Positions 6,828-35,862 of a stretch of 64,000 bases of DNA are shown in pieces (positions within the stretch are counted from its first letter, which is position 1; every line of letters starts with the position of its first letter). Under the pieces are notes generated by a model, which did not search any database, was not told the DNA's origin, and saw only the letters and a list, made by a program, of their open reading frames with translations. This stretch comes from a virus. The DNA is taken from IMG/VR virus record IMGVR_UViG_3300034112_000721, positions 32,001 through 96,000 of that record, one strand, 5' to 3'. Position numbers and translations under genes: made by a program.

Positions 6828-9359
6828 TTATTCATAGTAATAAAAAGGATAAACTGTGTCTCCATAAACCATCCCACCTACCTGATATACAGGTCCTCCA
6901 TATCTACTATATCTAGTTTTATATACTAATTCTTGCATATCATCTGGAAGACCACTTGCTTTTAATTGCATTGCATATTCTAAAGCATCTTCAGGTTTTT
7001 CAGGCTCTAATGGTTTACCCTGCTTAAAGATTTGCACTCCAGTTACAGGATCAATTGCATATTGCTCACTTTGAATATTGTATATATCAGCAGCATTTTT
7101 AATACCCTGATTCATCATTGCTGTTTTTAATGCATCTTTTGCATTTAATTCACCTCTATAGAAGTTTTCAGCAGCTCCAACTTTATCAATATACTGATTA
7201 AAAATATTTGCTCTATTTGCAGCTTCACTCATATCAGCTTGATAATTTAATTGTCTTTCCTGATTTTCTATACCAGTATTACCAGCCTGTGTTTGAAGTA
7301 TAGGATTTTGTATTGCACTAATAAGATCACCTTCTAATGAAGCAGCTATAGCTTGTTTTGCTGTAGATGGTGTTGCTGTTTTCCCTATTAAATCTAAATT
7401 TTTGGCAGCTGCCGCTTGTGCTGCTTGAACAGGGGCAAGCCACTCTTGTTTCTGCAAACTTATTTCAGGTGCTCTAGGAACCATTGCTGTAGGGTACTCA
7501 ATTCCAGTTCTTGTTCTCATTGCAGTGGCAAGATTTAACTTATCTTGAGTTGTCCATTCTGGCCAGTATGTTCCTCCCGGAGCCTGTACATCTGGAAACT
7601 GAACTTGTGGTTTTTGTTCCTGTTCACACTCACACTTACCATCTTTTAATGGAACTTCTTTTTCCACACCAGTTATAGGATCAGGACAAAAACATTTCTT
7701 TATTGTAGTTGGTGGAGCAAATTTAACTCTCTGTCCTAATGTAGTATTTGTATTAAATTGATCAATACCTGATACCTGTCCTTTTTTTCCTGCTATTTCT
7801 TCATCACCAACACCAACTTGGAACTGACCATATGGTTTATATTTTTCAGTTCCTAATAAATTTCTATATGCAATATATGCCGCTTGACCTTTAAAGCCAC
7901 TAGAAAAATCTAAATCACCAAGTCCATCAGGATTTTTTTGTATTAATTTATTTGCTGCAGCATTAGTACCAGTACTTCCTGATACATTTTGTTCTGTTTT
8001 AGAAGCATCTAAACCAAAAGCTTCTAGCCTTGCATTTCTTTCTTCTTGCGCTAGTAATTGATCTACAACAGATTTTTTATCAAGCTTTCTTAATTCCGGT
8101 GCATAACCGGTATATAGTTTTTCTCTTTGACTCTTAGTATAGTTTTCTTTATTTTCTATATCTTTTTGATATTGTGCATACAAGTCATTTTGAAAATCAA
8201 CATTTTCTTCTATTGCTCTTTTAGTATTTATAAAATCAATGTATGCTTGTTTCTTACCATTCCATTTTTTCTTAATTACCTCTAAGTCTTCTTTTGTTAA
8301 ATCTGCTTCAGTAATTTGTCCTCCTCCTTCAAATGTATTTAACTTACTTGTACTTCCACCATTTTGCATAATCAATGGCATATTAGTACCACCAATTATA
8401 ATGCCTTCTCTGGCCATAAATGGACCGCTTCCTAGCATTCTTTCTCTTCTTCCTAAATAGTTATTAGGATTACCTCCACCAAGAGAAATTCCATATTGTG
8501 CAAATGGCATTTCATAACCACCAACCGTCATACCATACATAGCCATAGGTGCTTCTTGCATTTGTTCTGGAGACATTTGTTGTGCACTCATCATCTGTTC
8601 TTCCATAGATGGTTGTGCAATTGGTTCTCCAGATGGCATTTGCTGTGGCATTGGTTGCTCTTCCATTTGTTCTTCTACCATTTCTTCTTGTGGCATACCT
8701 TCTTGCGGCATCATTTGTTCTTCTTCACTGATACCTTCTGGCATTAAATCTTCTTCTGTAATTCCATTAGCTTCCATGTATGGCTTAGCAATAACAGGTA
8801 TACCTTGAGGAAAACCTTTTTTAGATTCTTGTGCAAGTGCTAATGCACCAAGTTTCATGACATAATTTTTAATCATCATTTCTGCAGTTTTCTTTTCCAT
8901 TTTATTGGAGTCAGGATCTTGCAAAAGTTTTCTATATTTATTTATGTCATAAGTCTTAGATAATTCTGCTGGCGTATATCCACCTTTTTTAGGTGTTTTA
9001 CCAAACATCTTTAAGATTTCAGGATCAGTTATTTTCATTGACTGTGTGTCACTAAAAATAAATGTGTCATCTGGTAAGTTCATAGGTACTCCACCAGATG
9101 AATGTCTTGGACCTTTTATATTATAGAATGATGGAAATGTAGAACCATCTATATCTCCCACTAATGTTTCTCCACCCTCTGCTTCTATGTTAGCTTCTTC
9201 TCTAGGAACAGCTCCCATAGAATTTCTAACTCTTAAGCTTGGTTTACCAATGTATGCATTATAATCTGCACCACCAAAAGCAGGTACATCATTAGCTAAA
9301 GAACCTTGAATTTGATATCCAGTTCTTGCTCTAGGAAGTTTTTTTAGTTTTTTATCCAT
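6828..9359 (-). CDS. Virion cargo protein with crAss-type 'EAEGGE...GPRHSSGGV...IFSD' domain and xxGG motifs
   Basis: 843-aa ORF; motif I recognise from crAss-like internal proteins; acidic M/Q/E-rich linker; repeated AxYG/xxGG motifs. Confidence 0.6.
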   Translation of the reverse strand: MDKKLKKLPRARTGYQIQGSLANDVPAFGGADYNAYIGKPSLRVRNSMGAVPREEANIEAEGGETLVGDIDGSTFPSFYNIKGPRHSSGGVPMNLPDDTFIFSDTQSMKITDPEILKMFGKTPKKGGYTPAELSKTYDINKYRKLLQDPDSNKMEKKTAEMMIKNYVMKLGALALAQESKKGFPQGIPVIAKPYMEANGITEEDLMPEGISEEEQMMPQEGMPQEEMVEEQMEEQPMPQQMPSGEPIAQPSMEEQMMSAQQMSPEQMQEAPMAMYGMTVGGYEMPFAQYGISLGGGNPNNYLGRRERMLGSGPFMAREGIIIGGTNMPLIMQNGGSTSKLNTFEGGGQITEADLTKEDLEVIKKKWNGKKQAYIDFINTKRAIEENVDFQNDLYAQYQKDIENKENYTKSQREKLYTGYAPELRKLDKKSVVDQLLAQEERNARLEAFGLDASKTEQNVSGSTGTNAAANKLIQKNPDGLGDLDFSSGFKGQAAYIAYRNLLGTEKYKPYGQFQVGVGDEEIAGKKGQVSGIDQFNTNTTLGQRVKFAPPTTIKKCFCPDPITGVEKEVPLKDGKCECEQEQKPQVQFPDVQAPGGTYWPEWTTQDKLNLATAMRTRTGIEYPTAMVPRAPEISLQKQEWLAPVQAAQAAAAKNLDLIGKTATPSTAKQAIAASLEGDLISAIQNPILQTQAGNTGIENQERQLNYQADMSEAANRANIFNQYIDKVGAAENFYRGELNAKDALKTAMMNQGIKNAADIYNIQSEQYAIDPVTGVQIFKQGKPLEPEKPEDALEYAMQLKASGLPDDMQELVYKTRYSRYGGPVYQVGGMVYGDTVYPFYYYE

Positions 9360-9360: not shown

Positions 9361-12300
9361 TTATTTTTTATTTAAACCAGCTAGTTTTATTAAATTTTGA
9401 AAGTCACTAATATCTATTTTGTGACCACCAGTTGGTGCTTTGGTTTTTTTATTCTTAATAGATCCACCTTTTTTACCTATTACACCTTCAAATCCTTGTT
9501 GATAAACATCTCTACCTGTTCTAGGATCATATCCTCCAGGATTATAATCTTGATAGGCTTTTAATTTTTCACCTCTTGCTATTTCAGTCATTTGAGGAAT
9601 ATATTTATTTACTCTATCATTTCTATAATCTCTAATATCAGCAAGAGTAGCTCCGGCATCCATCAATCCCCTTGAAATATTATCATAGTTAATGGTACCA
9701 GTTCTATTTTCTTTTAATTTTAATTGAGCTTGTGTTGGTAGTTGTTCCATTGTACGCGGACCTTGACCTGCATACATTGGATCATAACATGGACTATTAG
9801 GATCTTTTACTTCATCTTCTGTACAAGGACCTATTTTACCTTGACCAATACCACCTGGTTGCACTATGCTATTTGTAGGATATGATACTGGAGAAAAATT
9901 TATTCCTAGATCAGCCCTTACAAGACCACCATTAGCACGGCTCTGAGCAAAAGGATTTTTCTTTTCTATTTGTCTTGCTTTTTCTGCATATGTAGACATT
10001 ATGTTTTCATAAATTCTTCTTTCCGCAGCATTTTTTGGCTGACCTGAACCTATATATCTTTTTATCTGTTTATTTCTATCATCGTAAAGACTACTTAAAG
10101 CCTTATCATAAAGTTTTCTTGCCTCATCTTCTGAATAATTTTTTGAATAATCAATTTTTGGATTAAATCTATTCTTTAAATTATATATATCACGAGACCA
10201 GTATGCAGATATAGGATCAAATCTTTCTGAAGCAGGATTATATCTTGGCCCAAAGTTATTTGTTGGTTGTTGATTTCTTCTTACTCCTGCTCTTGCTCCT
10301 GCTCTTACTCCTGTTCCTGTTTGATTTTTAATAATCTGTTTTTGAACTTCAGGTGTTTGTTGAGCAAACCAATCTCTTCCTTCCATTGTATTTAAAATAG
10401 AATTTGGATTATTAATTGCTATGTCACTTGAAGAACTACTAGTTAATGGATCTACACCAAATTTATATTCTGTAGGTTGTTCATAATCTGGATTAAATGG
10501 TATCATGCTTCCATCATATGGATTAGAAGAGAAGCTTGAATTATAAAAGTCTTCATCAGCTACAGGATTGCTACCTGGTTGTTGCATGAAAACATCTCCT
10601 TGATTAAATGATCCATAATTTGGAATACCAGAGCCTGAAGTAAATTGGTTATCCGTAAATCTCTGTAAATCAGAGTTTGGTTGTTGAAAGTAATTTTGTG
10701 CTGGCTGAATATTATTAACAACAGGGTTTCCTGCAGTAACTGATGCATTTTCAGTTTCAGGAATTTCTTGTTCTGATTGTGGTTCTTCAGTTTGTGGAAC
10801 TGATGCAGGTTGATTATTTACAGCTGGAGTATTTTGCTGTGGAGTAACCATTTCTTCCTCATCATAATATTCAGGAGAATCTATATTGATAGGCTCTCCT
10901 GCAGCATTAATTACAGTAAGATTTCCTTTTGTTGCTGTAGTAGGATTATTATAAATATCTGCAGTTCTTTGTGGTGTAATATTGTTTGCTGCAGCAGCTC
11001 TTTGTTGTGCTTGAATTGCGGATGTGCTTGTAGGTGCTCCTACTGTAGGCATAGAAGTTCCAGCACCTGGAGTTGTATTTAATACACTTGTAGGAGCTAT
11101 GTTTACAGGTGTTCCAGGTGTACCAGTAACTAGATCAGCACCTTGAGTACGGGTCATACTTGAAACAGGTGTATAAGGACTTTCTACTTTAAGACTTGAT
11201 GTTGGAGTAGTTGGTTGTTGTGTATATGGTCTATCATCTTCTAAAGGTTTTCCAAATCTAATTCTTTGGATAAGATCATTAGCTCCAAGTCTTAAACCTG
11301 AAAGACCCATCCCTTTATATTTATATCCTCTAGTATCTTGTTGACCAGTTGTTCCTGCAGCTGTACCAGATAGCGCAGGTAAACCTGCAGCTATTTGTCC
11401 TGGAGTAGCATAATCTATAGTTGTAATTCTATCTTTATTAAAACCTAAGTTTCTTTCAAACCAATTACCATCTTGTTTTCTTTCTTTACTATATTTTATA
11501 CCGGTAGGAAGCATTCCAGCTTTGGTAATTGCTGCAGCTGTTGCTGCATATTGCAATGGATCACCTACTGGTGAAAATGTAGAAGCCCCTCTAGTAAATG
11601 GTCTATATAGATTAGCAGCAGTTTGAAACATTCCTCTTCCACCAAAAGATCCTGCATATGGATTACCACCAAATTGAGGATACCCCCACACTGGTTGCCA
11701 AGGTCCAGCAGAACCAAAACCACCAGGATAGTATTGTTGTTGTTGTGTTTGAGTTTGTGTATTATATTTCTTTTGTGTAGCTTCTTCTATTTTCTTTCTT
11801 TCTTCTGCTATTGCTTTATCATACTCTTCTTTAGTAGTAATAGGTTTAAAAGTATTAGATTTATCTACTTCACTGTTACCAGTTCCTTGAAACTTGTATA
11901 AACCACCATCTCTAAAATATGAATCTGTTACATCTTTAGAGTTTGTATAATCTAAGTCAGATTGATTTACTGGTGGTTGCAATATATCTGATAAGAATAC
12001 ATTATCTACTTCTGTACCATATACAAATTTTGTTAGATCAGGTCTATTAGGATCTACAAAACCACCTTGTTGAAACCAAGGAGCTATTCCAGGATTTATA
12101 AATGTAGCTCCTATTTTTAAATAATCCCAAAAATCCAGTCCACCATCTGAACTACTAACTGGTTTAGGAGCTGGTTTAGGAGCGGGTTTTGGTGCCGGTG
12201 TAATACCTGACATATTAACTTTACCAGTACTTGAAGTAACTGGTGCAGGTGGTGTCTTTAATGGAATACCCAATCCTTTTTTTGTTTGGGCAGGCTTTAC

Positions 12301-13659
12301 AGAAGTTTTAGTAGTAGATGGAGCATTTGATTTGTTAGCTGCTTTTGCTGCAGCTTCTGATCCCGTAGCTTTTGCTACTTCTTCTGTAGACTTATTATTT
12401 ACCCCTTGTGCTACTGTTTCAGTAACAAGTCTTCCTGGTGTTACTACTCTAGTGTTTTGATTAACACCATACATTCCAGGAAAAGACATTGATGGAAACA
12501 TGGACATTAACATGAGTGGATTAAACTGTATGTCAGCATTTCTTAAACCACCAAGTAATCCAAAATTATATTTTGCAGAAGTTACTCCTGGAGGAGTAAA
12601 TGGCACACCAAACATTTTTCTATTTGCTCTTGCCATTCTACCACCACCAAATAAACCTGGTCTCCGATTCATATACATATTTCTATACATTTGTTCAGCT
12701 TGTTGTCTATAGAAATTTTCTTGCGCCTGGTTTCTAATAGCTCCAACAAAATTATTATTAGTAATTGTTGGTACAGGTTGTGTAGGATTTGTTTCAGTGC
12801 CTTTTACATTAGCTGTATTTGCATCTTTTGTTTCAGTTCCAGCAGCTGGTGTTTGTTGTCCATCTTGAGCTTTTTTAAGTTGTCTGACCATCTTATTTAC
12901 AAATGATCTTTTATTAGGTATGTTTCCACCAATTGCATATTGATTAGCCATATTGTAATCATCTAAATCTAGTACATCATTAAAATTATCAACTGCACCA
13001 CCTATTTGTTTATATGACCAATTACCTCTAACCTCATTAATATCCATATAATTATCTTGCTCTTCTGGTAATTCTTCTTCCTGATCATCTGCTTCTGCTA
13101 CTTCTTCATCATCTTTAATAGCATTAAATTCTAAATCATTTATTAAATTAGAACCACCAATATTAGAATTATCTTCTCCTGCTAATTCAGCATAATAACT
13201 TGCAGAATTATTATCTGTCTCTTTTTGCTCTGGAGCTTCAGTAATTGTTTCTTCTGTTATTTCAAGTCTTTCATTTTGTTGATCTCTTGCTTCCTTTCCA
13301 AACTGAGAAAATATTCCTTCCACTAATTGATTTACATTGGGAAGTATATTTGCAAGTTGCGGATAAGCTTCCTGATATGGCTCATACTTAGCATATATGG
13401 CTTCTTTTACATCATCACTTCCACCACCTCTAGAAATCATTTCTATAATATCTTTAACTATGATATCTTCAAAATTAACTTGTTGCTGTTGTTGTGGTTG
13501 TGGTTGCATACCTTGCATCTGTTGCATAATACCTGCAGTTACAGGAGTAACTCCAGACTCTGCACCCATCTCTGCTTGTCTTAACCACTTAGCGGTTTTA
13601 TTTATATAGCCTCCTTTACCATAAGGATCTTTATAAACTATTACTTTTCTTTTTGCCAT
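9361..13659 (-). CDS. Large low-complexity internal virion protein with multiple xxGG motifs
   Basis: 1432-aa ORF rich in Q/P/T/G/N, with PAPKPAPKPAPKP and motifs YAIGG, FQQGG, FRDGG, KKGG. Confidence 0.55.
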   Translation of the reverse strand: MAKRKVIVYKDPYGKGGYINKTAKWLRQAEMGAESGVTPVTAGIMQQMQGMQPQPQQQQQVNFEDIIVKDIIEMISRGGGSDDVKEAIYAKYEPYQEAYPQLANILPNVNQLVEGIFSQFGKEARDQQNERLEITEETITEAPEQKETDNNSASYYAELAGEDNSNIGGSNLINDLEFNAIKDDEEVAEADDQEEELPEEQDNYMDINEVRGNWSYKQIGGAVDNFNDVLDLDDYNMANQYAIGGNIPNKRSFVNKMVRQLKKAQDGQQTPAAGTETKDANTANVKGTETNPTQPVPTITNNNFVGAIRNQAQENFYRQQAEQMYRNMYMNRRPGLFGGGRMARANRKMFGVPFTPPGVTSAKYNFGLLGGLRNADIQFNPLMLMSMFPSMSFPGMYGVNQNTRVVTPGRLVTETVAQGVNNKSTEEVAKATGSEAAAKAANKSNAPSTTKTSVKPAQTKKGLGIPLKTPPAPVTSSTGKVNMSGITPAPKPAPKPAPKPVSSSDGGLDFWDYLKIGATFINPGIAPWFQQGGFVDPNRPDLTKFVYGTEVDNVFLSDILQPPVNQSDLDYTNSKDVTDSYFRDGGLYKFQGTGNSEVDKSNTFKPITTKEEYDKAIAEERKKIEEATQKKYNTQTQTQQQQYYPGGFGSAGPWQPVWGYPQFGGNPYAGSFGGRGMFQTAANLYRPFTRGASTFSPVGDPLQYAATAAAITKAGMLPTGIKYSKERKQDGNWFERNLGFNKDRITTIDYATPGQIAAGLPALSGTAAGTTGQQDTRGYKYKGMGLSGLRLGANDLIQRIRFGKPLEDDRPYTQQPTTPTSSLKVESPYTPVSSMTRTQGADLVTGTPGTPVNIAPTSVLNTTPGAGTSMPTVGAPTSTSAIQAQQRAAAANNITPQRTADIYNNPTTATKGNLTVINAAGEPINIDSPEYYDEEEMVTPQQNTPAVNNQPASVPQTEEPQSEQEIPETENASVTAGNPVVNNIQPAQNYFQQPNSDLQRFTDNQFTSGSGIPNYGSFNQGDVFMQQPGSNPVADEDFYNSSFSSNPYDGSMIPFNPDYEQPTEYKFGVDPLTSSSSSDIAINNPNSILNTMEGRDWFAQQTPEVQKQIIKNQTGTGVRAGARAGVRRNQQPTNNFGPRYNPASERFDPISAYWSRDIYNLKNRFNPKIDYSKNYSEDEARKLYDKALSSLYDDRNKQIKRYIGSGQPKNAAERRIYENIMSTYAEKARQIEKKNPFAQSRANGGLVRADLGINFSPVSYPTNSIVQPGGIGQGKIGPCTEDEVKDPNSPCYDPMYAGQGPRTMEQLPTQAQLKLKENRTGTINYDNISRGLMDAGATLADIRDYRNDRVNKYIPQMTEIARGEKLKAYQDYNPGGYDPRTGRDVYQQGFEGVIGKKGGSIKNKKTKAPTGGHKIDISDFQNLIKLAGLNKK

Positions 13660-13718: not shown

Positions 13719-16700
13719 TTAATCTATTTCTTCTACTATCCAGCCACCTTTTCTATACTGATTTATTTCTTTATCAGAAAGATCCATTATCATACCCCCA
13801 TCTTGAAACATTCTTGTGTTACCACCAAATCTTTTTTGCTGCATTGCTGCAGCATAAATGTTATTTATATTTTGAAGACTTGGTTCAATTATCTTAGTAA
13901 AAGTTTTTAGTTGTTCAATTCTTGGATCTACTTGTTCTTCTTCTTTTCTTGGTTGCCAATCATCATTTTGCATGTCTTTGATGATTGTTGTTTTTACAAC
14001 TGTTTTTTCACCAGGTGTTCTTGTTGTACTTGATTCAAACCCAGGTATTGATTGATTTGAAGATCCTACAAGTGGTCTACCAGAAAACTTAGATATTCTG
14101 CGCTTAACATCTCCTACTGTATAGTAACCTTTTTTATCTGCATCAAAAGTTTTATTTTGATTATATAAGGCATCTTGATTTATTCCAAATACTTTAATAC
14201 CGCTTCCACTAGCACCTAATACAAAATCATCTGGTTTTCCAACTGCAGCTGGAAGAAATGTATACATATATAAATCACCAATGTCTTTTGCTTTACCCAC
14301 TACTGGTTTATAAAATTTTTCTACATAATCCAATTGTTCAATAGCAGACATATTTTTTAAAGCTTCAATACTTGTACCTAAACCTTTTGCAGTATTTGGC
14401 ATAAACTGAATTAAGCCTGTTGCATTTGTATAAGGATTAACAGCAGCTGGATTTAACCCAGATTCATGATTCATAATACCAATTAAATCTTCTAGTGATA
14501 CTCCAAGATTATTAGCTACTTGTTGTGCTTTTGCTTGGAAGGCAGGATCCAATCCACTCATCTGCATACCAGTTCTTGCCTTTGTTAAACTTGGTGTAGA
14601 AAAATCTTCTACTATATATCCTTGTTTTACAAGTTTATCAATTTCTTTTTCTGTAAGTTCAGATACTATACCATTATCATTTGTTTCAATTAAACCACCA
14701 GATTTATAGTTTGCTCCATCATTAGTACCATAAGCAGCAGCTCCTACTCCAAGTCCTGTTGGTATAATATATGGTAACATGGATTTATATATATTAGGAT
14801 TAGTCATATCCAAAAGTATATTTCCTACTGCTGATTTCATCCTGTTTGAAAAAGGAACTACCATTTCAAAAGCATTTTCATTTATATTAGGATAAAACTC
14901 ATCACCTATTACAATATCTTTATCTAAGTATTGTTTAACTCCTCTATTTTTCATTTTTTCAGAAATATTTCTATGAAAATTTCGAAGTTGAGGATCTGCC
15001 AAATGTGCTCTAGCTGACTTTGGTATAGATGGATCTATAAAACTACTAGCATATAATGGTGATTTTGCGTTTACATATAAATTATATTGATTAACACCAT
15101 AGTCTTTTGAATACTCTAACGGAGTTACGTAAGTTCCTACTCCTTTATCTCCCTTATCTGTTGTGGAACCAAAATGCTCTTCTTTAAATTCCACAAATTT
15201 ATTTGGAGAACCATGCTTTACTGGTAAAACATTACCTTTTGAGTCTCTTAAAATAATAGGAAAAGCTTTTTTAAAATTACTACTTTGTTGAATTACAAAT
15301 TGTTCAGGAGTTCCTTGAAAAGGTGTACCATCAGCATTTTTCATCCATGTACCAGCTTCTTTATTAGCCTTTTCTATATCATTTAATTCTTGAATAACAT
15401 TAGGATTATTATCAAAGTCTTCTTTATATTTAACCCAGTTTCTCCAATCTATTTCTGATTGAAATTTAGAATTAGGAGAACCTGGTAGTTGTTTAGGAAC
15501 ATCTATTTTTTTATATCCCTTTAACCAGTGTTGTTTATAAATAGTAGCTTCATTTGTTGGAATAAATTTTTCTGGATTTGTATAGACAATATCACCCAAA
15601 TCTTTGCCAGATCCAAAATAAGTATTTAACGGAGTAAATCTTGAATCTTTTGCCGCATTAGAAACTTCTGTCATATAAGGACCTGGATACCCTCTATCCC
15701 AAACATGACCAAAATACTTTCTAGTATCAGATGGAACACCCATTGTATAATAAGTTTCAGGATGTACTATTTTAATATCACTACCTTGAGAACTTGGTCT
15801 AAAATATCCACTTTCTAAAGCATCCTTTAAACCAGCTTCATCTCCAATCATTCTATAAGCGGCTTCAGGATTAGGTTTAAATGCCCAAGGGTTATATTTA
15901 TAAGTATTTTTTAAAGGTGTTTTGGTAGTAATAAACTCTCCTAAATTTGAAATAGCCTTCGGTGCTGCACCAAACATATTAATAACTCCAGGAGACCCTA
16001 AAATACCCAATGCATCTAAACCAACATTTCCTACTGCATCTAATATGTTAGAAGTAGTAGGATTATTATATGCTTTTTCTAAACTCTTTCTAGACTCAGA
16101 ATCAGAATCTGCAAGATTAGCTGCACTTTGTGAACCAAAAATTAAACTTGCAATATTAAATGGAGTTACTGTACCTGCAGTAGCTGTTGTTATTCCTTCT
16201 CCAAGTGGTAGAGCTGTATTTAATGCTGGCCAAATAACATTTTTAGCATATTTAGATCCAGATTTTAGAGCATTACCAACAAGACCTGCAGCACCACCAC
16301 TAGGTCCCATAAAGAACATTTCGGGATATACCATTTGTACAGGAGCATCTCCATAGTTATTCCAAGGACCATTACCAGTAACTTGTCTTCCATTATAATA
16401 ATAAGTTTTTGGTTTAACAGGATTATAAGTAGATTTGTATGCCCTTTCAATATCTGATTCTGCACCAAATATATTTTCATTTATCCAATCTCCAAAATCT
16501 TCTAAATAAGTTTGGTTTTTATTTTTATCTTCAATGTTCATAACCCATTGCTTATATTTAGCATCAGCATCAGGATCTTTTAATTCCATTTTATCTCCAT
16601 CTATGTAAATTATTTTGTTTTTTTCTTCATATGGATCTTTTTTTGATTTGAGATCAATTTCTTTTGCGTCTTGAACAAAATCACGTACAGCAAGATTTAC

Positions 16701-18656
16701 CTCTCCAGGTTTAGTTTTAGGTGCACTAGCTAATTTTTCAACTGCAGCAAGACTTTTTGGTTTTGCTGTTGCTCTAGCAGCACTAACATTACTAGAAGGT
16801 TTAGATTTATTTTCTGATTCAGAGATTGCCTTAGTAATATAATTAGCCATATTACCAAGACCACCAGCAGCACCACTAGCAATTAATCTTGAAAGCTCAG
16901 CAGCTTTTTCTTTTTCTTGAAGTTGTTTTATTGGATTACCTCCTTTATCCATTCTAGTTAATGAAGGTATAGAAATGTCTTCTATTATATATCCACCTTT
17001 TCTGTATTCTTCTATTTGATTATCATCAAGTTCAAGTTCAATATAACTAGGTGCTCCAATCATATTTCTTAAAAAACTCTGTGCATCAGAATCTGCAATT
17101 GAAGGATTTTCAGTTGCTATATTTCTACCATAAACATTTGTAATTGGCCTATAACCAATTTTTCTATCTTCATCTACAGCATGCTGAAATGTTTCATGTG
17201 CAGGTGATTTTAAATATTCTCCTGTATTTTGATTAATACTATATGCATGATAATAACCATCACTCTCTTTGGGTTGATCATAATTAAATTTTTCTGGTCT
17301 TCCCTCAGAATCCCAATAACCCCTTATATCATATGTAGCATCATCTGTTTGAAGATTTTCAGGAAGTGTAGCATAAAATTTTTGAAATTCTATTTCTTCT
17401 TCTGGTGACAGTTTAGTAATACCACCATTTTGTTTCCTTATAAGATTACCTATAGAATGTCCATAGCTTGCTTCTGGTAATTCTACACCATCTTTAAATA
17501 TTTGTCCTGCACTTCCTAATTTATTAATAACAGATTGTTTATTATCTATATGTCTATTTATTCCCAGTTCTTTTATTTTAGCTATCTTAGCTTTATCTGA
17601 TCCTGTTGCAAATATTCTATCTTCAGATATTCCCGCAGCTCTTGCTCTTTCTATCATATCTGGTGTTACTTCAGCTCTAGCAGATATTATATATTTTTCA
17701 TTAGGCATGGATTGAGCCATTTGTAAACCTCTATCTGTGCTAAGTGTATCATCAAAGTCAAATGAAATTATTTCACCTCCTATTTTTTTATATTTTAACT
17801 TTTTAAGATTTTCTAAAATGCTTTCTATTCTTTGTTCTTCTTGTCTCGCCTCTCCTTCTATTGTAGATGGATTCATATACATTCTTTCCTGTGCTAAATT
17901 TAGTATTTTCTCTTCTGGCATATCAGGATTTTCTTGCATAATTTGATCAAAAGCTTGATCAAATTCAACACCTCTTCTATCATAATAAGCACCTATTGCT
18001 TCATCTGATGCAACATATGGATTAGGCCTAAGACCTACTGAACCGTATGTACTCATTTTACCATCCATATTTTGTTTATCATGAAAAAGTTCATGCGCCA
18101 ACCACCAAGGATTATTTATATTTTCTATTGGACTATTTGGATTATATGTTATAGTTCTAAATGCAGAATTATAACCTAATTGATGTTCAGGATTATTAGG
18201 ATCATAATTTTTTATTGGAACATATGTTATACCACCATCTTGAAAATATGGAGAATTAGGATCAAAGATTTTATTCTTTACAGATTTTGATTTTTTAAAT
18301 AACGGGTTTTTTGTAAATAATATATTCCTAGCCATTAAGCTTTTGGAATATTTTTTAGGATACTTTTTACTACCACCTTTCTTAGCTTGTGGTATTTCAT
18401 AAACCATGTCTCCTTCAAACTGATACTCATTACCTGGAGTCATGTATTGTGCATTACCTAAATTATCTATACCCAATAAGTCATCTTCTACTCCTTTCAT
18501 GGTTATCTTTCCAGTAGGTGTAGGTACTGCAGTAGGAAGACCTGGGTAATCCCATTGCCCTCTTTCAGAAACAATAAATCCTTGAGTAAATCTTTTTAAC
18601 TCATTTGGACCACCGGGTAAACCAGCTTTTTCATATTTCTTAAAAGACTTCTTCAT
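13719..18656 (-). CDS. Polyvalent multi-enzyme virion protein: zincin, HAD-like, ART-like and lytic transglycosylase domains
   Basis: 1645 aa; HELFH...EGEA (zincin), SFDFDDTL...IISAR...K...HIDN (HAD), YRMIG and HGSP...GVGTYVT (ART-like), HESGLNPAAVN...ATGLIQFMPNTA (SLT). Confidence 0.7.
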   Translation of the reverse strand: MKKSFKKYEKAGLPGGPNELKRFTQGFIVSERGQWDYPGLPTAVPTPTGKITMKGVEDDLLGIDNLGNAQYMTPGNEYQFEGDMVYEIPQAKKGGSKKYPKKYSKSLMARNILFTKNPLFKKSKSVKNKIFDPNSPYFQDGGITYVPIKNYDPNNPEHQLGYNSAFRTITYNPNSPIENINNPWWLAHELFHDKQNMDGKMSTYGSVGLRPNPYVASDEAIGAYYDRRGVEFDQAFDQIMQENPDMPEEKILNLAQERMYMNPSTIEGEARQEEQRIESILENLKKLKYKKIGGEIISFDFDDTLSTDRGLQMAQSMPNEKYIISARAEVTPDMIERARAAGISEDRIFATGSDKAKIAKIKELGINRHIDNKQSVINKLGSAGQIFKDGVELPEASYGHSIGNLIRKQNGGITKLSPEEEIEFQKFYATLPENLQTDDATYDIRGYWDSEGRPEKFNYDQPKESDGYYHAYSINQNTGEYLKSPAHETFQHAVDEDRKIGYRPITNVYGRNIATENPSIADSDAQSFLRNMIGAPSYIELELDDNQIEEYRKGGYIIEDISIPSLTRMDKGGNPIKQLQEKEKAAELSRLIASGAAGGLGNMANYITKAISESENKSKPSSNVSAARATAKPKSLAAVEKLASAPKTKPGEVNLAVRDFVQDAKEIDLKSKKDPYEEKNKIIYIDGDKMELKDPDADAKYKQWVMNIEDKNKNQTYLEDFGDWINENIFGAESDIERAYKSTYNPVKPKTYYYNGRQVTGNGPWNNYGDAPVQMVYPEMFFMGPSGGAAGLVGNALKSGSKYAKNVIWPALNTALPLGEGITTATAGTVTPFNIASLIFGSQSAANLADSDSESRKSLEKAYNNPTTSNILDAVGNVGLDALGILGSPGVINMFGAAPKAISNLGEFITTKTPLKNTYKYNPWAFKPNPEAAYRMIGDEAGLKDALESGYFRPSSQGSDIKIVHPETYYTMGVPSDTRKYFGHVWDRGYPGPYMTEVSNAAKDSRFTPLNTYFGSGKDLGDIVYTNPEKFIPTNEATIYKQHWLKGYKKIDVPKQLPGSPNSKFQSEIDWRNWVKYKEDFDNNPNVIQELNDIEKANKEAGTWMKNADGTPFQGTPEQFVIQQSSNFKKAFPIILRDSKGNVLPVKHGSPNKFVEFKEEHFGSTTDKGDKGVGTYVTPLEYSKDYGVNQYNLYVNAKSPLYASSFIDPSIPKSARAHLADPQLRNFHRNISEKMKNRGVKQYLDKDIVIGDEFYPNINENAFEMVVPFSNRMKSAVGNILLDMTNPNIYKSMLPYIIPTGLGVGAAAYGTNDGANYKSGGLIETNDNGIVSELTEKEIDKLVKQGYIVEDFSTPSLTKARTGMQMSGLDPAFQAKAQQVANNLGVSLEDLIGIMNHESGLNPAAVNPYTNATGLIQFMPNTAKGLGTSIEALKNMSAIEQLDYVEKFYKPVVGKAKDIGDLYMYTFLPAAVGKPDDFVLGASGSGIKVFGINQDALYNQNKTFDADKKGYYTVGDVKRRISKFSGRPLVGSSNQSIPGFESSTTRTPGEKTVVKTTIIKDMQNDDWQPRKEEEQVDPRIEQLKTFTKIIEPSLQNINNIYAAAMQQKRFGGNTRMFQDGGMIMDLSDKEINQYRKGGWIVEEID

Positions 18657-21600
18657 TATCTTATTGACATTTCATTTTTACTATTTACAACTTTTAATAT
18701 AAAGTTGATATCTCTTTCTTGTTCTGTAGCAAGTTTAGATAAAAATAAATAATTTAAGTAATGTCTAAACTTCTTTCTTTGAGTATCTAACTTAGCATAA
18801 TTTAAGTTTGCATTATTCAAAGTTTTAATATAACCATTTGGTTCTGTATTCCAAATAAATTGTTCAGAATAATTACCAAGAAGTTGTGTAGTTCCAGGAA
18901 CAAGAGGTCCTGTTGGAGGGTAATCTGACCCAATTGGAAATTCTCCTCTATCTTTTGTAATATCCCAATACTGATTAAACCTATACTTATTTTCTTCTTT
19001 TGAAAATAATATATCAAATGAAGATAAGTTGGATTGATTTAATTTAGGATATTGTAATGAAAGAGTAATATTATTTTTTGGGAATATGTTTAAATTAAGA
19101 TATCCAGATACTTGCTCTGTGTTAGATATAACTGCTTGACTAAAGTTTGCATCAAGAACATGAAACTGATCTACACAGTTAAATTGTGAATATCTATAAC
19201 ACTCTAAGGTATATTCTATTGATCTTACAATACTTGGAGCAGATCCTGTATTTATTGGATACTCTATTTCAAAAGGATATTGTGTACCATAAAAATTACA
19301 GAAGTCATCACATACATCATTATGTCTCCAGATTGTATTACCTTTTACAGTAAACAATGTTTCTTTAGATGAAAATACAAGATCTGGATGCCAATCATGA
19401 TAACTAATAAATACTTGTAATTTAGGGTCATAACTTACAGTCCATGATGCATCAACAAAAACATTTGGGTGCCCTAATGGATAATTTACTCCAAGATAAT
19501 TAAACTTATTTGTTTCTGGATTATAAGATACTTTACCTATATCCTTTCTTAACTGATAATCTTTCTTAGTAAAGTATAGTATAGATGATCTTGTATCATA
19601 TCCTGCTTGAACACCAATACCAGCTACTGGATTATCTTGATGTGGATAATCTGGAAAATCTTCTGTTAGCTTATATGGTAAAAATAAAGAAAACCACCAC
19701 TTCAATCCATTTTGTGAAATTTCTTTTATACCCTCACCATATGCAAAAAGTTTACCCTGATTCATTGATGCATAATATAATCCAGCTGGTGAGTATATTA
19801 CAGATCTTATATTTTGAGATGAACCATATTCAAATGGTGCATCAGCATTTACTGCAGACTGTGGAGGATTACTAAATAAACCACCATCTCCAATAGTTAC
19901 TTTTTTACCAGATAAAGTCTGTAATGTATCTATACCTTGATAGAACAAAGGTCCTGTAGTTGGGAATGTAAAGATCATACCTGTCATACCAACAGGTTTT
20001 ACCGTAGTAATTTTATCATTAAACTGTACATAGTTTAATGGTAAATAGATCAACCAATTATTATCATAGGATTGATCATCTTGGTACAATGAGTATAACG
20101 CTCTATTTGGATAATATGTAAAACATAATTCTGCAACTTGAGGATCATAATTTGCACCTTGTGTTGATCCGGCAGAAAGATACTGTGTAAAAAACTTAGT
20201 AACACTTAATGAATAATCATAGTTATAAAAGTTACCCTTAGTAATTACTTCTGGATTCATATCAAACAGCTGTCTTAAATCTGTATATTGATATGGTATA
20301 TATGGTTGTTGTGATTGTAAAGTTCCTTGTGATCTAAAGTCTACAAGTACATTACTCTCTACAAAGAAATCTCTTACACCAGAATTAGCTAAATACATGT
20401 ATGAATCCTTAACAGATAAAAATCCTGGATAGTTTCCTTCCGTATCATTTTGTCTATCATAATTATCATTATCTAAATTATAATATCCTTTTGGCATTGG
20501 ACCAGTACCAAATGTTGGCTGAGGAGTTAGTAAAGATATTATATCTGCAATTGTTGTTGCAATATTACCACCAGCAGCAATTGGATTTTCATCTTTACTG
20601 TATGGTGCAGTATTCATCCAATACCTTGCTGTAGGTATATTATTATATAATGCATAGTTCCATATAGTTCCATCAGGTAAATTATATAACCAGTTGTAAA
20701 AGAAAAGCATTGTGTTCTTTTCTGTAAATCTGTTTATATAAGTATCTCCTCCAAATATAATTTCTGATGTTGGAAGAACTTTATGAAATACTTGTCCATT
20801 CAACGGGCAGTTGCCAGATGTTGGTTGAGAAATTATATTATTAGGATCAAATTTTTGTTCACACGTTGTTGCAACAACTTGTTTAATACTATCAATTCTA
20901 CCATATTGATTTTGTACATTATATTTTAATCCAACATAATGACTTGCTATATTTCCTAAAAATTGTTTAAATAATGATTCATTTTTAAAACTCATATCAA
21001 AGCTTGGAACATCAGTTGCTTTACCAAGATTAATTAATGAGTTATCTTCTTGAAAACCAATTTGCTGTGTTGATCCAACATATGTACCAACTAACTGCGG
21101 TCCTATTGTTGGAGCAATGGTAGGTGATGTGTATGTTGTATTTGGAGCAGAAGTTCTAATAAAGACTGTCTTAGGTCTAGAAAGATTATTTATTGTAAAT
21201 CTTTGAAAATTACCAAATCCATTTAAATAATCTGGAACCTCTTGATTTCTATCACTAAGATAGAACCCGTTTTCAATTTTAAATCTTTTTAAGAAATTAG
21301 TATTAGGTGCAACAAATCTTGCATAGAATCCATGTGCTAATGATTGTAAAGCATATTGTCTAAATGGTAAAAATGCTTGAATAATTCTTAGTGTTGTATT
21401 GAACCCCTCAGTAAAATAATATGGTAACTGCACACCAATATTTATTGCGCTTGTTGCAAAAACACCAAGCCCTAAATTATTTAAAACAGTTGCTGTATTA
21501 TAATCTGTTATAAGTGTTGTTGGTGGATATAGTCCAATATTTGCATATGATTGTGCCGTTGTTTCAAAAATCTCTTCAAGCGTTAAAGATGCCGGATTAC

Positions 21601-24109
21601 CAGGTCCAGTAATTGCACCAGAAATTTGTTGAGAGGCACTATTAAAATAGTTATTAAGTTGTGTATAAAAGTTAAATGCATTACTTGCAGCAGCATTTAC
21701 TGTAAATGAATCAAGATCTCCTGGTGGTGGATTTGGTGGTGTTAAGTTATTACCATTACCACCTGCAATATTCCAATAATCATATTTTTGATAAGGGACT
21801 TGAAAATCTGGAAGAGCTGGTGATGATATCTGTTTCTTACCCAATAAGTTTAATAAAGCATTTCCAAGACCAGCTATAATTGCAATATAAACCGCAGCAT
21901 TACTCATCAACTGATTTTCAGGATGCTTATCTGGTATTACAAAAGAATGTACTGAGTTACCTTCTAAACTTCCATAGATTTTTAATTCAGTTTGGTTTAT
22001 AAAAGGATTTCTAAAGCTAGTATCTGGAGATGTAAATGTAAGAAGGTTTTTTGGTATACCTTGATTTACAAATGTTTCATTTCCATCTTTATCTATAGTG
22101 GTTGTTTTAATAAAAGGATCATTATAATAATAATCATGATCTCCAATATTTGCAGTATTATCTAATGGTATTGAACAGTTAAATGGATAGTTTGCATATA
22201 GTCCTGTTCTATTACCTTTTGATTGCCCCTGTATAGGATAAGTCCTAAAGTTATTAATCATCCCTTTAGCAACTATACTAAGATTACCTTCTCTTGAACC
22301 TCTTAGTATTTCATATCCAACTATATTAGGAATATCATTACCGTCATTATCTTTTGGGTAGATTATATTATTAAACTCTACACCCATTATTCTAATAAAC
22401 TTTTTACCATCAGAAGCATTAGCATTTTCTACTCTAAAGTGATATGTATCAGGTGTTAATGCATTATCTGGAAACTTGTGATGTCTAATAGGTTTACCAC
22501 AAAGATCATATCTTGGATCTTTAGTAGCTGTCCAACACTGTGAACTTGAATTCCATATGTTAGGTTGGTTATCAGGATATATTTCTGTAGATTGCCAGTA
22601 TCCCATTTTACCTTTAGCTAATACAACTCCTCCATCAGGTAATACTGGATAGTTAGGAAAGTATGTATCTGTCTGCCAAGCTGTATTTACAGTTTCAAAT
22701 AATAATGTGTTATCTACAAAACTATTCTTATCTGTATATGTATCAGCATCTTTTGTATTTGCAGGAACATTATCTGGATTTGGTGTTGGATAGTTTTCTT
22801 CTGGTCTTCCAGGAATGTGATAAGATGCAGATTTATCTCCAGTATTGTATACCCATCTTATAAAGAAAGCATATACCTCATCTCTAAGATAACCTACTTT
22901 AGATCCTCCAGTAATATAATAGTCTTCAGGATATTCAACTGACACCCATTTAGTATTTATCAAATTAGCAAGTGGCTGATAATTAAAATCAAATTTAGAT
23001 GTGGGAGCAATTCTAAGTAAGTACTGTCCAACATTAACTATCTGATCTGATTTCTCATATACTGGATTTAATAATGGTATAGCTGATGTTGGTATAGTTA
23101 TTAATGTCTGTGGTATATCATCTAATAAGATTGATGTTTCAGAAGTAGAATAATAACCAATCTGTTTTGCTTGAACATTTTCATTAATTGATCTAACTAT
23201 TACTAATTCAAACTGCTCAAAGTTTTCAGTGTCTAAATCTAATGTTAATAGTAATGATCCTTGTGAAACATCATTAGGATTATATACTGGTTGAAGATTA
23301 CTTGGAGAAAAATAATTAGTTACATTCTGACCCTTAATAGAATATGCTACAACGGCAAAGTAAGTTCCATTTTCTAATGTACCTGTACCAGGTGCAATTG
23401 AAAGTTGAACGCATGGTGTCTGTACTAATGATGCCAATCTTATTTTGTCACAATCTAAAAAGTTTAAATCTGTACATATTTTACAATCTCCAGGAGTACA
23501 TTTTTGTTCCCATGCAGTAATTGGCCATAATACAGTTCCACTTGATGAAATATATCTATTATAATTTATACCTGCTGTAGCTTGATTAGAGCCACCCCAT
23601 TGAAAAGATGAATCTGGCCATGTCTTTGGATCACCAATATTTAAATATCTATCAGGATTTAAACCATCTGCCCAATACACTTCCCACTTACAATCTCCCT
23701 TTTGTCTAGAAGCTCCGGTAATTAAATTATATGGACTAAAATTTAAACATGGTGCAGAAACAATTGGTCTATACAAACAATGTTCTTCTTCATATAAACC
23801 AATTTCAGAATTAACAGGTTTACCATTTACAGTAGCAACAGTAAATATAATCCACTTATCCGCATATAAATGTATAATACCAATAATAGCTTTATCACCC
23901 TGCATGGTCTCTCCACTTGTTCCGCAGAGATAGTTTGAGTCCTCATTAGATAAAGTACCTAGGTTACCCTCATCAGTATTATTGACCATGTTTCTTGCAT
24001 GTGTCCATAGTCCAGATGTTACAAATGATGGGTCTGTATCTTTATTTAGACCTTTAGAGAAACTATTTGTAATATTCTGAGTAGTATTTTGAAGACCTTT
24101 TTTAGCCAT
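18656..24109 (-). CDS. Tail stabilisation/muzzle (nozzle) protein, P22 gp10-like position
   Basis: 1817 aa; N-terminal FSKGLNKDTDP...ARNM motif, YLRDEVYAFFIRW, C-terminal WTVSYDP...SYHDWHPD; lies downstream of ring proteins as in crAss-like tails. Confidence 0.75.
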   Translation of the reverse strand: MAKKGLQNTTQNITNSFSKGLNKDTDPSFVTSGLWTHARNMVNNTDEGNLGTLSNEDSNYLCGTSGETMQGDKAIIGIIHLYADKWIIFTVATVNGKPVNSEIGLYEEEHCLYRPIVSAPCLNFSPYNLITGASRQKGDCKWEVYWADGLNPDRYLNIGDPKTWPDSSFQWGGSNQATAGINYNRYISSSGTVLWPITAWEQKCTPGDCKICTDLNFLDCDKIRLASLVQTPCVQLSIAPGTGTLENGTYFAVVAYSIKGQNVTNYFSPSNLQPVYNPNDVSQGSLLLTLDLDTENFEQFELVIVRSINENVQAKQIGYYSTSETSILLDDIPQTLITIPTSAIPLLNPVYEKSDQIVNVGQYLLRIAPTSKFDFNYQPLANLINTKWVSVEYPEDYYITGGSKVGYLRDEVYAFFIRWVYNTGDKSASYHIPGRPEENYPTPNPDNVPANTKDADTYTDKNSFVDNTLLFETVNTAWQTDTYFPNYPVLPDGGVVLAKGKMGYWQSTEIYPDNQPNIWNSSSQCWTATKDPRYDLCGKPIRHHKFPDNALTPDTYHFRVENANASDGKKFIRIMGVEFNNIIYPKDNDGNDIPNIVGYEILRGSREGNLSIVAKGMINNFRTYPIQGQSKGNRTGLYANYPFNCSIPLDNTANIGDHDYYYNDPFIKTTTIDKDGNETFVNQGIPKNLLTFTSPDTSFRNPFINQTELKIYGSLEGNSVHSFVIPDKHPENQLMSNAAVYIAIIAGLGNALLNLLGKKQISSPALPDFQVPYQKYDYWNIAGGNGNNLTPPNPPPGDLDSFTVNAAASNAFNFYTQLNNYFNSASQQISGAITGPGNPASLTLEEIFETTAQSYANIGLYPPTTLITDYNTATVLNNLGLGVFATSAINIGVQLPYYFTEGFNTTLRIIQAFLPFRQYALQSLAHGFYARFVAPNTNFLKRFKIENGFYLSDRNQEVPDYLNGFGNFQRFTINNLSRPKTVFIRTSAPNTTYTSPTIAPTIGPQLVGTYVGSTQQIGFQEDNSLINLGKATDVPSFDMSFKNESLFKQFLGNIASHYVGLKYNVQNQYGRIDSIKQVVATTCEQKFDPNNIISQPTSGNCPLNGQVFHKVLPTSEIIFGGDTYINRFTEKNTMLFFYNWLYNLPDGTIWNYALYNNIPTARYWMNTAPYSKDENPIAAGGNIATTIADIISLLTPQPTFGTGPMPKGYYNLDNDNYDRQNDTEGNYPGFLSVKDSYMYLANSGVRDFFVESNVLVDFRSQGTLQSQQPYIPYQYTDLRQLFDMNPEVITKGNFYNYDYSLSVTKFFTQYLSAGSTQGANYDPQVAELCFTYYPNRALYSLYQDDQSYDNNWLIYLPLNYVQFNDKITTVKPVGMTGMIFTFPTTGPLFYQGIDTLQTLSGKKVTIGDGGLFSNPPQSAVNADAPFEYGSSQNIRSVIYSPAGLYYASMNQGKLFAYGEGIKEISQNGLKWWFSLFLPYKLTEDFPDYPHQDNPVAGIGVQAGYDTRSSILYFTKKDYQLRKDIGKVSYNPETNKFNYLGVNYPLGHPNVFVDASWTVSYDPKLQVFISYHDWHPDLVFSSKETLFTVKGNTIWRHNDVCDDFCNFYGTQYPFEIEYPINTGSAPSIVRSIEYTLECYRYSQFNCVDQFHVLDANFSQAVISNTEQVSGYLNLNIFPKNNITLSLQYPKLNQSNLSSFDILFSKEENKYRFNQYWDITKDRGEFPIGSDYPPTGPLVPGTTQLLGNYSEQFIWNTEPNGYIKTLNNANLNYAKLDTQRKKFRHYLNYLFLSKLATEQERDINFILKVVNSKNEMSIR

Positions 24110-34965: not shown

Positions 34966-35460
34966 CTATCTATTTTTAGCAATTTTCTTTAAAGTCTTTG
35001 CAAGAGCTTTTCTCTTAGGAGTACAAGTAGGTTTAGTCATTGGAGTACAATATCCTTTGTGCGCAGGATTAATTGCCTTTTGAATCCACTTCTTATCAGT
35101 TGACCCACCTTTTTTAGCTTTAAACATTGGTTTATCTTCAACAGGTGCTGGGGGCGTAGAAGTTTTTGGAACTCCTCTTAAAACTCCTTTTAAAGTTCTT
35201 GTTTCCTTAGCTCTTTCAGGCTCACCATAATTTTTTTTAACTACTGTTTTATAGTTACCATCTGGAGAATAAAACTTCATCTTTGCTTCTTTTGGTGCTT
35301 TATCACTTAAAGCTCCTCCATTATCAAATTTAGTTCTTGCAGGTTCTCTTTTACCTATAGGAGTATAGCCTTGATCTTTAGCAGATCTAATCTTACCAGG
35401 ATATCCTCTCTGTACTTTTACAGATGCTCCAAACTTTGCAGTAGTCTTTTTAGTTGCCAT
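34966..35460 (-). CDS. Small basic protein (FDNGG, AKKGG; KKWIQKAINP...CTP motif)
   Basis: 164 aa, Lys-rich. Confidence 0.75.
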   Translation of the reverse strand: MATKKTTAKFGASVKVQRGYPGKIRSAKDQGYTPIGKREPARTKFDNGGALSDKAPKEAKMKFYSPDGNYKTVVKKNYGEPERAKETRTLKGVLRGVPKTSTPPAPVEDKPMFKAKKGGSTDKKWIQKAINPAHKGYCTPMTKPTCTPKRKALAKTLKKIAKNR

Positions 35461-35505
35461 GACTTTACTTTTTTACTTTACCTTTATTTCTACAGCTACA
35501 CATGA

Positions 35506-35844: not shown

Positions 35845-35862
35845 AGTAATATATATAATAAG

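Follow-up and report, generated by a model that had tools for sequence, protein, structure and literature searches.

The gene that lies right after the muzzle gene of a crAss-like phage encodes a hypervariable polyvalent protein, and relatives of this protein gain, lose and reorder their domain cassettes exactly at short peptides that end in Gly-Gly. The phage is represented by IMG/VR virus record IMGVR_UViG_3300034112_000721, a complete 112,531-bp record with direct terminal repeats, of which bases 32001–96000 were analysed; this stretch of 64,000 nucleotides is referred to as the window, and positions are window positions unless another record is named. The open reading frame (ORF) at 13719–18656 on the minus strand specifies one uninterrupted protein of 1645 residues, P0001. 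Its plan comprises a constant N-terminal part of ∼142 residues, a variable string of cassettes and a conserved C-terminal module, here called R. The exchange of cassettes at the Gly-Gly joints is established by comparison of the relatives, as a rule that is strong but not absolute. A sequence-only reading of the window had described a multi-enzyme payload with domains separated by xxGG motifs, and every motif that it listed lies where it had been placed.

Cassette exchange at the Gly-Gly joints

A database search gave 210 homologues of P0001, of which the best 120 were studied. These typically match 7–64% of P0001, often at 80–98% identity over the matched part, which is the pattern of a mosaic. 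The ends of high-scoring segment pairs (HSPs) against P0001 cluster at residues 95, 142, 294, 412, 541, 573, 1321, 1351 and 1621. When all proteins were compared with one another, 249 of the 1959 distinct HSP C-terminal ends fell exactly on the second Gly of a GG, with 48 and 25 at the two positions before it, and 640 HSP ends lay ≤3 residues from a GG compared with 112 for random positions. HSP starts peak 4–6 residues ahead of the second Gly, an effect of the similarity among the joint peptides. The proposal that modules are exchangeable, with gain and loss exactly at GG, is borne out by this piling of breakpoints on the second Gly and by the two-module indel described below.

Explicit junctions include PYFQDGG/ITYVP, PYFASGG/EIISFDFDDT and PYFQDGG/ITKLSPEEE, where the slash marks the joint. 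After the sequence …PNSPYF(QD/AS)GG comes a zincin module in P0001, a HAD module in the homologue P0007 and the domain containing YDIRGYW in P0003. Almost every cassette ends in a joint peptide, with the next domain starting at once after it.

One exchange can be followed in nearly identical DNA. In the IMG/VR contig L005, compared over L005:10001–14962 with window 13719–18656, the DNA matches that of the window at 99.1% identity in the N-terminal region and at 97.5% across residues 413–905, and residues 143–412 (the zincin and HAD modules) are missing through a clean 810-nt indel between two GGTGGTAT sites. The ends of this indel are the sites GATGGTGGTATAAC and AATGGTGGTATTAC; the L005 junction is a chimera of both, and 10-nt ATGGTGGTAT microhomologies flank the indel. 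L005 also has a different HExxH cassette (HEIEH) in place of the ADP-ribosyltransferase (ART) module of P0001. Replacement of the ART takes place after …SEIDW (∼residue 1072), where there is no GG, and weighs against an exchange rule without exceptions. Between L005 and the window, the adjoining 3' end of the muzzle gene shows only 81% identity.

Sequence constraint on the joint peptide

In 272 distinct junction contexts the joint has the consensus [Y/F/M/K]-[Q/K/A]-[D/K/E]-G-G, with an information content of 1.6, 1.8 and 0.8 bits at P5, P4 and P3 and of 0.3–0.5 bits at P1'–P6'. Conservation is thus restricted to the N-terminal side, an asymmetry like that of a protease site, which argues for cleavage. 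There is no spacer on the other side: in GG/EIISFDFDDT the catalytic Asp of the HAD module stands at +6 after the joint. Few columns of alignments A2 and A3 are invariant or nearly so, and the pairs G411/G412, G554/G555 and G1320/G1321 belong to them; the family-wide alignment A1 has just one column of this kind, G94. The linkers that carry the joints fall in stretches of the structural model with a low predicted local distance difference test score (pLDDT) and are probably disordered. The number of GG dipeptides in P0001, 13 against 11.6 predicted from composition, is that of any protein of this composition, and the signal therefore lies in position and context, not in number.

That count is what an origin in chance or artefact would predict, whether from common GG dipeptides, from alignment edge effects or from fused, mis-called ORFs. 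The sharp breakpoint peak at offset 0, the explicit junction sequences, the clean indel within 97–99% identical DNA, the uninterrupted ORF and the same architecture in 14 contigs make such an origin extremely improbable, and for the exchange rule chance is refuted. A signal acting in the DNA, either a recombination hotspot or an internal ribosome-binding GGAGG with the protein motif as its by-product, is suggested by the ATGGTGGTAT microhomology at the ends of the 810-nt indel, but it too is very improbable. The Gly codons differ from joint to joint (GGTGGT, GGTGGA, GGAGGA, GGAGGT and others) and follow the overall usage of Gly codons in their proportions, and on this variety we reject the idea, because it indicates that the joint is constrained as protein and not as DNA. 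The residues at P5–P3 are also conserved as amino-acid classes across unrelated contexts. We regard both explanations as effectively excluded.

The R module and the family architecture

The R module is 22–33 residues long, and its pattern, L..xxxIxxxxKxG[YW]I[IV]E, starts at residues 543, 1334 and 1626 of P0001. The three copies noticed in the sequence-only reading are thereby confirmed, and the pattern is absent from all other six-frame ORFs of ≥50 residues in the window. A scan with an R-module hidden Markov model of 121 proteins, the query and its 120 best database homologues out of 210, found 226 copies in 113 of them. At least 63 of the 121 proteins have R at their very C-terminus, many others ending in an R-like …LGYTFEEI, and 10 of 12 complete locus proteins likewise end in R or R-like sequence. 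We infer that the C-terminal R module may act as a virion-incorporation or anchoring signal.

A set of 135 family proteins was used for clustering and for HExxH counts. Cut at the GGs, these proteins yield 262 clusters of fragments, of which 57 recur. Pfam domains among the relatives are SET, VanY, SLT, ART-PolyVal, YkuD, amidase_2, LysM and CBM_14, with one crAss_CARG1. Wall-hydrolase cassettes are accompanied by a conserved tail of ∼90 residues plus R, found after SLT and, in relatives, after VanY. There are also minimal family members, such as P0122, which consists of the N-terminal region, a zincin and two R modules in 357 residues.

Modules of P0001

All modules are on the minus strand. 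The conserved N-terminal region, residues 1–142 (18231–18656), is a putative delivery or anchor region; it is 81–100% identical in nine IMG/VR relatives, and a Pfam search with it gave no match. It divides into sub-modules that each end in GG, namely residues 1–16 (…GLPGG), residues 17–95 (GQWDYPG…QAKKGG), found in 94 of the 135 family proteins, and the very basic residues 96–142 (…PNSPYFQDGG), found in 105. The remaining GG motifs and their positions are KKIGG 290–294, KQNGG 408–412, YRKGG 551–555 and 1634–1638, MDKGG 569–573 and YKSGG 1317–1321; AKKGG (91–95) and FQDGG (138–142) close the two larger N-terminal sub-modules, and FQDGG recurs at 1617–1621.

Residues 143–294 (17775–18230) form a zincin-like metallopeptidase module, with HELFH at 188–192 (18081–18095) and a conserved …EGEA… at 267–270. 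The HELFH motif had been picked out from the sequence near 18081 as that of a zincin; in alignment A6 His192 and Glu267 are invariant, and His188 and Glu189 are kept in at least 90% of the rows. The model of this module has a pLDDT of 75–86 and the strand-strand-strand-helix order of a zincin. The fold itself went unmatched: two fold searches gave none among the matches listed, which the HAD domain filled, and profile and single-sequence searches of the PDB with the module gave no match either. Sequence searches produced a weak Pfam M91 match (E 0.02) and an Atlas lead, 'SprT-like' (0.89), and the family is narrow, with only 54 representatives in a set of 1.84 billion proteins. The MPTase domain that the sequence-only reading named for polyvalent proteins did not materialise: nothing in the six-frame translation of the genome matched MPTase-PolyVal (PF18818) at E≤10, and DUF6782 was likewise without a match. 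The HExxH module of P0001 appears to be zincin-like and belongs to a separate family.

The following module, residues 295–389 (17490–17774), is a predicted cap-less HAD-type phosphatase in which DFDDT, at residues 300–304 (17745–17759), corresponds to DxDxT. It is modelled with pLDDT >90, and the model superimposes on the T4 Pnkp 3'-phosphatase (5uj0_B) with a VIA Z of 10.8 and a root-mean-square deviation of 2.2 over 96 residues; Foldseek gives KdsC/YrbI phosphatases with a probability of ∼1. Motif and model together uphold the HAD-like assignment made near 17750 and support a small HAD phosphatase with a DxDxT nucleophile motif on a Rossmannoid core. The linker peptide …SYGHSIGNLIRKQNGG at residues 390–412 (17421–17489) has a pLDDT <50, with G411 and G412 nearly invariant, and reappears in other contexts in contigs L011 and L012. 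Next come the 'YDIRGYW…LKSPAHETF' domain of unknown function, residues 413–540 (17037–17420), which matched nothing in Pfam, the PDB or the Atlas and is one of the commonest swappable modules (46 proteins of the clustered set), and the first R copy, residues 541–573 (16938–17036; ELELDDNQIEEYRKGG/YIIEDISIPSLTRMDKGG/).

The centre of the protein, 15942–16937, consists of a helical low-complexity stretch (residues 574–780) and a Gly/Ala-rich one (residues 781–905). The latter is the 'hydrophobic region' of the sequence-only reading; the segment exists, but with a highest Kyte-Doolittle value of ∼1.0 it is weakly hydrophobic. An AlphaFold2 model of residues 574–1366 was poor (mean pLDDT 44), and Foldseek gave no meaningful match to it. 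Residues 906–1060 (15477–15941) are a conserved module of unknown function, 97–99% identical in contigs L005 and L008.

Two ART-like domains had been proposed, near 15850 and near 15210, and only the second is supported. The first corresponds to residues 906–1060, for which profile and single-sequence searches gave no Pfam or PDB match and which show no similarity to the ART module; the assignment lacks support. The second is the ART-PolyVal module at residues 1061–1290 (14787–15476), where the isolated segment matches PF18760 over residues 1138–1279 with 31.1 bits against a cut-off of 31.2 (E 4.8e-7). The PolyVal clade is defined by an H-Y-D/E signature (PMC5512222), and P0001 has H1148 in HGS, Y1176 in GTYVTP and E1264. 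The module aligns with P0072, which scores 50 bits with PF18760, and the HGS, GxYxTP and E residues are conserved between them. An ART of the PolyVal H-Y-D/E clade is thus supported, by a borderline score and consistent residues.

A Gly-rich hydrophobic tail with the YKSGG joint follows at residues 1291–1321 (14694–14786), G1320 being invariant and G1321 nearly so in alignment A3, and leads to the second R copy, residues 1322–1366 (14559–14693), which ends …PSLTKARTG with a single Gly. The lytic transglycosylase recognised in the sequence-only reading at ∼14100–14560 is an SLT domain at residues 1367–1525 (14082–14558), matched both by Pfam (PF01464, 34.9 bits against a cut-off of 21.3, E 1.2e-8) and by PDB entry 9udh (E 5.6e-27). 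With a catalytic-type Glu in the HES motif at 1397–1399, its assignment from sequence is firm. This part also matches a PDB 'internal protein', 9k2v_E, and is the only part of P0001 with a match among cultured phages. The conserved tail that accompanies wall-hydrolase cassettes occupies residues 1526–1621 (13794–14081) and ends …MFQDGG, and the third R copy, residues 1622–1645 (13722–13793), ends the protein with …KGGWIVEEID.

Position of the gene in the phage genome

The gene for P0001 belongs to a crAss-like phage and lies in its block of cargo and RNA-polymerase genes. Directly upstream is the gene for the crassvirus muzzle protein (18656–24109, minus strand), identified by Pfam, as were ring proteins 1 and 2, also directly upstream, and a crassvirus capsid protein elsewhere in the genome; a portal homologous to ΦcrAss001 gp20 is encoded further upstream (41874–44621). 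Downstream are ORFs of 1432, 843 and 1012 residues and then giants of 2870 and 4143 residues. The closest cultured homologues of the muzzle protein are in the Cellulophaga phages phi17:2 and phi4:1, at ∼27% identity.

A muzzle gene immediately precedes the P0001-type gene in all 14 related contigs fetched. The muzzle proteins are 69–96% identical to that of the window in 11 of these contigs and 36–49% in the other 3, and in 12 complete copies of the locus the P0001-type protein ranges from 606 to 1877 residues, a span that is reached among phages with muzzle proteins of 72–96% identity. In ΦcrAss001 the gene after muzzle gp44 encodes gp45, cargo protein 1 (Bayfield et al. 2023, PMC10172136). 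The homologue P0028, which shares the ART module of P0001 (52% identity) and its joints, carries a crAss_CARG1 domain at 1257–1379; P0028 has no match among cultured phages. The idea of an injected toolkit thus receives indirect backing, from the position of cargo protein 1 and from a homologue that joins the ART to crAss_CARG1.

There is no cysteine among the 1645 residues of P0001. Of the neighbouring ORFs, that of 1012 residues (3727–6765, minus strand) also has none, that of 1432 residues has two and that of 843 residues has four, in CxC pairs. This lack or scarcity of cysteine is consistent with proteins that must unfold and thread.

The joint motif in other proteins

The motif recurs in two further cargo ORFs on the minus strand. 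The [hydrophobic]xxGG pattern is significantly enriched in both; it occurs 9 times in the 1432-residue ORF (9361–13659) against 2.9 expected, and 6 times in the 843-residue ORF (6828–9359) against 2.1, with examples such as APWFQQGG, DSYFRDGG and LIMQNGG. Behind the capsid gene, a 112-residue Lys-rich ORF (35506–35844) contains 5 motifs against 0.7 expected: KMKAGG, KMAKGG, TMKKGG, KMATGG and YMKKGG. It is not alone, as a run of small Lys-rich ORFs with many M-[KA]-x-G-G motifs occupies 34966–37775 on the minus strand. These small proteins have the appearance of internal or DNA-associated proteins, with a joint motif in common with the cargo proteins. The small basic protein of ORF 36412–36684 (minus strand) has a homologue in the database protein P0170 (307 residues), in which this homologue is joined to the zincin via GG joints. 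A search for loci related to those of stand-alone zincins found none carrying a zincin.

Cultured phages show similar patterns. The virion structural protein gp041 of phi17:2 (L019 22737–25424), two genes after the muzzle homologue gp043, has 6 [F/Y/M/L]xxGG motifs against 1.6 expected, mostly of the form FQxGG (FQAGG, FQIGG and FQSGG; also YQNGG). ΦcrAss001 gp45 (L020 3988–6516) has 21 GG dipeptides, with AYGG or AFGG at 210, 333, 428 and 563, and these motifs bracket the segments resolved by cryo-electron microscopy, 214–245 and 425–552.

A 601-residue ORF (54745–56550, minus strand) has 39 GG dipeptides, and its ORF set matched the Pfam collagen repeat. It probably encodes a collagen-like fibre unrelated to the joint motif, which occurs in it 8 times against 6.5 expected.

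Proposed ejection and processing

We infer from synteny that P0001 is packed in the virion and would be ejected ahead of the DNA, like cargo protein 1 of ΦcrAss001. It could then deliver enzymes that cut the wall, SLT here and VanY, amidase or YkuD in relatives, together with enzymes that modify the host, ART and HAD here and SET in relatives. The joints may well be endoproteolytic processing sites, cut after Gly-Gly, although we hold this to be somewhat short of probable. Such cutting would part enzymes whose action is required in different compartments. The prime candidate for the protease would be the zincin-like modules themselves, in cis or in trans, which might also process neighbouring cargo proteins and the small Lys-rich proteins with the same motif. 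A broader proposal, which we make with more reserve and consider rather doubtful, is that [Y/F/M]-x-x-Gly-Gly would be the recognition site of a virion-associated protease, provided by the zincin cassettes or by another enzyme, that matures a set of internal proteins in environmental crAss-like phages; here this set would comprise P0001, its two cargo neighbours and the small Lys-rich proteins.

Besides the one-sided conservation of the joint, several observations speak for cleavage. Domains begin exactly at the joints, unrelated internal proteins have the motif as well, and wall-acting and cytoplasm-acting enzymes are combined in one chain with SLT at its C-terminal end. An HExxH motif other than that of VanY is present in 90 of the 135 family members (67%), compared with 1.5% of shuffled sequences, in zincin-like cassettes of several sequence types. 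The presence of such cassettes fits the processing role that passages of PMC5512222 propose for the peptidases of polyvalent proteins. Contigs L005 and L007 lack the P0001-type zincin; as an argument against processing by zincins this was dropped, since both have other HExxH cassettes.

Against cleavage stands the search for a dedicated enzyme. Peptidase_C5 (PF00770), C48 (PF02902) and C39 (PF03412) have no match at E≤10 in the complete genome, its Pfam census contains no prohead-protease family, and MPTase-PolyVal and DUF6782 are likewise missing. No HExxH at all is present in 28 of the 135 family members, and some relatives have none within 10 kb. Because R contains a GG at mid-length, 17-residue peptides would result if every GG were cut, and Pro occupies P1' in 8 of the 272 junction contexts. 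In ΦcrAss001, gp45 is treated as one chain spanning tail and capsid (PMC10172136), and its modelled domain 425–552 runs through an AFGG motif. Finally, crAss_CARG1 (PF25725) has no match at E≤10 in the genome of P0001, so that the argument for homology with cargo protein 1 draws on gene position and on the modules in common.

Peptidase-like Pfam matches elsewhere in the genome have no link to the joints. An early-region protein of 392 residues (L001:1821–2996, plus strand) has HELLH, by which the DUF2201_N (putative metallopeptidase) and VWA-like Pfam matches of the ORF set were assigned to it; a 'PhageMetallopep' match is separate, somewhere in the early region. These, DUF2201_N with VWA and PhageMetallopep, are the only peptidase-like families detected in the genome besides the P0001 zincin. 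The polymerase-associated giant of 4143 residues (L002:3399–15827, minus strand; genome 14698–27126) has no Pfam match and contains YHEAWH and IHEAAH, which are possibly zincin modules.

It is quite possible, if to our minds not probable, that P0001 is never cut and is ejected as one chain of beads on a string. The [YFM]xxGG peptides would then be short linear motifs in disordered hinges that bind a virion partner (the capsid interior, portal or tail barrel) for packing or aid unfolding and threading, and the joints would be exchange points only as tolerated in-frame breakpoints. The lack of a detected dedicated protease agrees with such a chain, as does gp45, which is modelled as one chain whose short helices contact the ring proteins and the portal, an AFGG falling inside one domain. 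Several motif copies per protein would give avidity, and both the predicted disorder of the linkers and the occurrence of the motif in small basic, probably internal, proteins are in keeping with binding peptides. Hinges of this kind do not account for the next domain starting directly after GG, with the HAD catalytic Asp at +6, nor for conservation that is confined to the N-terminal side of the joint. A C-terminal SLT would moreover meet the wall last if the N-terminus exits first, and the presence of zincin-like modules in 67% of members also speaks against an uncut chain.

The extra enzymes might instead act on the cell surface, which we consider unlikely. In PHROGs the SLT part matches 'baseplate hub' and 'lytic tail protein' families, the gene is placed within the tail block, and gp042 of phi17:2, in the same position, is annotated 'tail protein'. 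The ART, SET and HAD/Pnkp-like domains, however, need cytoplasmic substrates such as NAD+, the gene holds the position of cargo protein 1, and the portal-binding CARG1 domain is present in one homologue; the absence of cysteine and the very basic N-terminal region of P0001 also speak against action at the surface.

Relation to known systems

Polyvalent proteins combine many unrelated effector domains in one virion-associated polypeptide, and zincin-like peptidase modules, frequent among them, have been proposed to process the protein, as passages of Iyer, Burroughs, Anand, de Souza & Aravind 2017 (PMC5512222) describe. P0001 resembles them in carrying at least two unrelated effector domains (zincin-like, HAD, ART-PolyVal and SLT) in one ORF, and in the kinds of domain combined: an H-Y-D/E ART, a lysozyme/transglycosylase and a zincin-like peptidase. 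It differs in that its zincin does not match MPTase-PolyVal, and it goes beyond them in the [YFM]-x-x-G-G grammar, the conserved N-terminal region, the C-terminal R module and the post-muzzle placement. The passages of PMC5512222 on cleavage and processing name no joint or cleavage motif, and the word 'linker' is absent from that paper.

With gp45, P0001 shares its place directly after the muzzle gene, aromatic-GG motifs and a Gly-rich, weakly hydrophobic segment, residues 781–905 recalling the Gly-rich predicted membrane segment of the ΦcrAss001 protein. In contrast to P0001, gp45 has no enzymatic domains, is half the size and has not been reported to be processed; P0001 for its part has no CARG1 domain and no detectable sequence similarity to gp45. 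Having neither MPTase-PolyVal nor crAss_CARG1, P0001 is therefore not filed as a member of either narrow family; functionally it is a polyvalent protein, and by position it is a crassvirus cargo protein 1. Like the muralytic ejection proteins (T7 gp16, N4-like and other podovirus internal proteins), it would carry an SLT in the virion to open the wall, and T4 Alt, as PMC5512222 summarises, is an injected ART that modifies host proteins. T7 gp16-type proteins and T4 Alt have a fixed architecture and one activity each, whereas the P0001 family shuffles cassettes from at least 57 recurring fragment families.

Three other systems offer analogies. Adenovirus protease cuts (M/L/I)XGG↓X, in small basic core proteins as well as elsewhere, pS273R of African swine fever virus (ASFV) cuts GG↓X, and C39 peptidases cut double-glycine leaders. 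The joints of P0001 recall these sites in having a hydrophobic residue a few positions before Gly-Gly; unlike the adenovirus site they have it at P5 and not at P4, and unlike all three systems the genome of P0001 has no detected clan-CE or C39 protease. The first half of the R module (LSxxEIxxYxKGG) is reminiscent of the double-glycine leader LSxxELxxIxGG, with the register off by one residue. In polymorphic toxins the junction motifs are VENN in CdiA and PxxxxDPxGL in Rhs, the latter being also a self-cleavage site. Here too a short conserved peptide marks the exchange point of variable enzymatic cassettes, but these toxins are secreted bacterial proteins with immunity genes and one variable C-terminal tip, whereas P0001 is a phage virion protein with many joints and cassettes in series. 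The literature searched, with incomplete coverage, held no account of a Gly-Gly joint rule, of the R module or of cassette turnover at this crassvirus locus, and the joint grammar of P0001 is apparently undescribed.

Implications

Crassviruses are among the most abundant phages known, and little is understood of the material that they inject before their DNA. The post-muzzle gene emerges as a fast-evolving plug-in rack of enzymes with a simple grammar for joining cassettes. The joint rule provides a practical way to split giant proteins into domains, which helps to find enzymes of anti-defence or host takeover, such as the YDIRGYW domain, residues 906–1060 and the SET, ART and HAD cassettes. 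Even without cleavage, the joints carry a sequence-specific signal, common to internal virion proteins, that bears on the packing or ejection of cargo. If they are cleaved, the processing step proposed for polyvalent proteins would gain a defined sequence motif, and a maturation system would be added to a phage order for which the literature searched reported none. Should a virion protease indeed recognise the motif, adenovirus and ASFV with their GG-X processing would have a convergent counterpart in a tailed phage, a polyprotein-maturation system whose cleavage sites double as evolutionary plug-in sites for effector cassettes.

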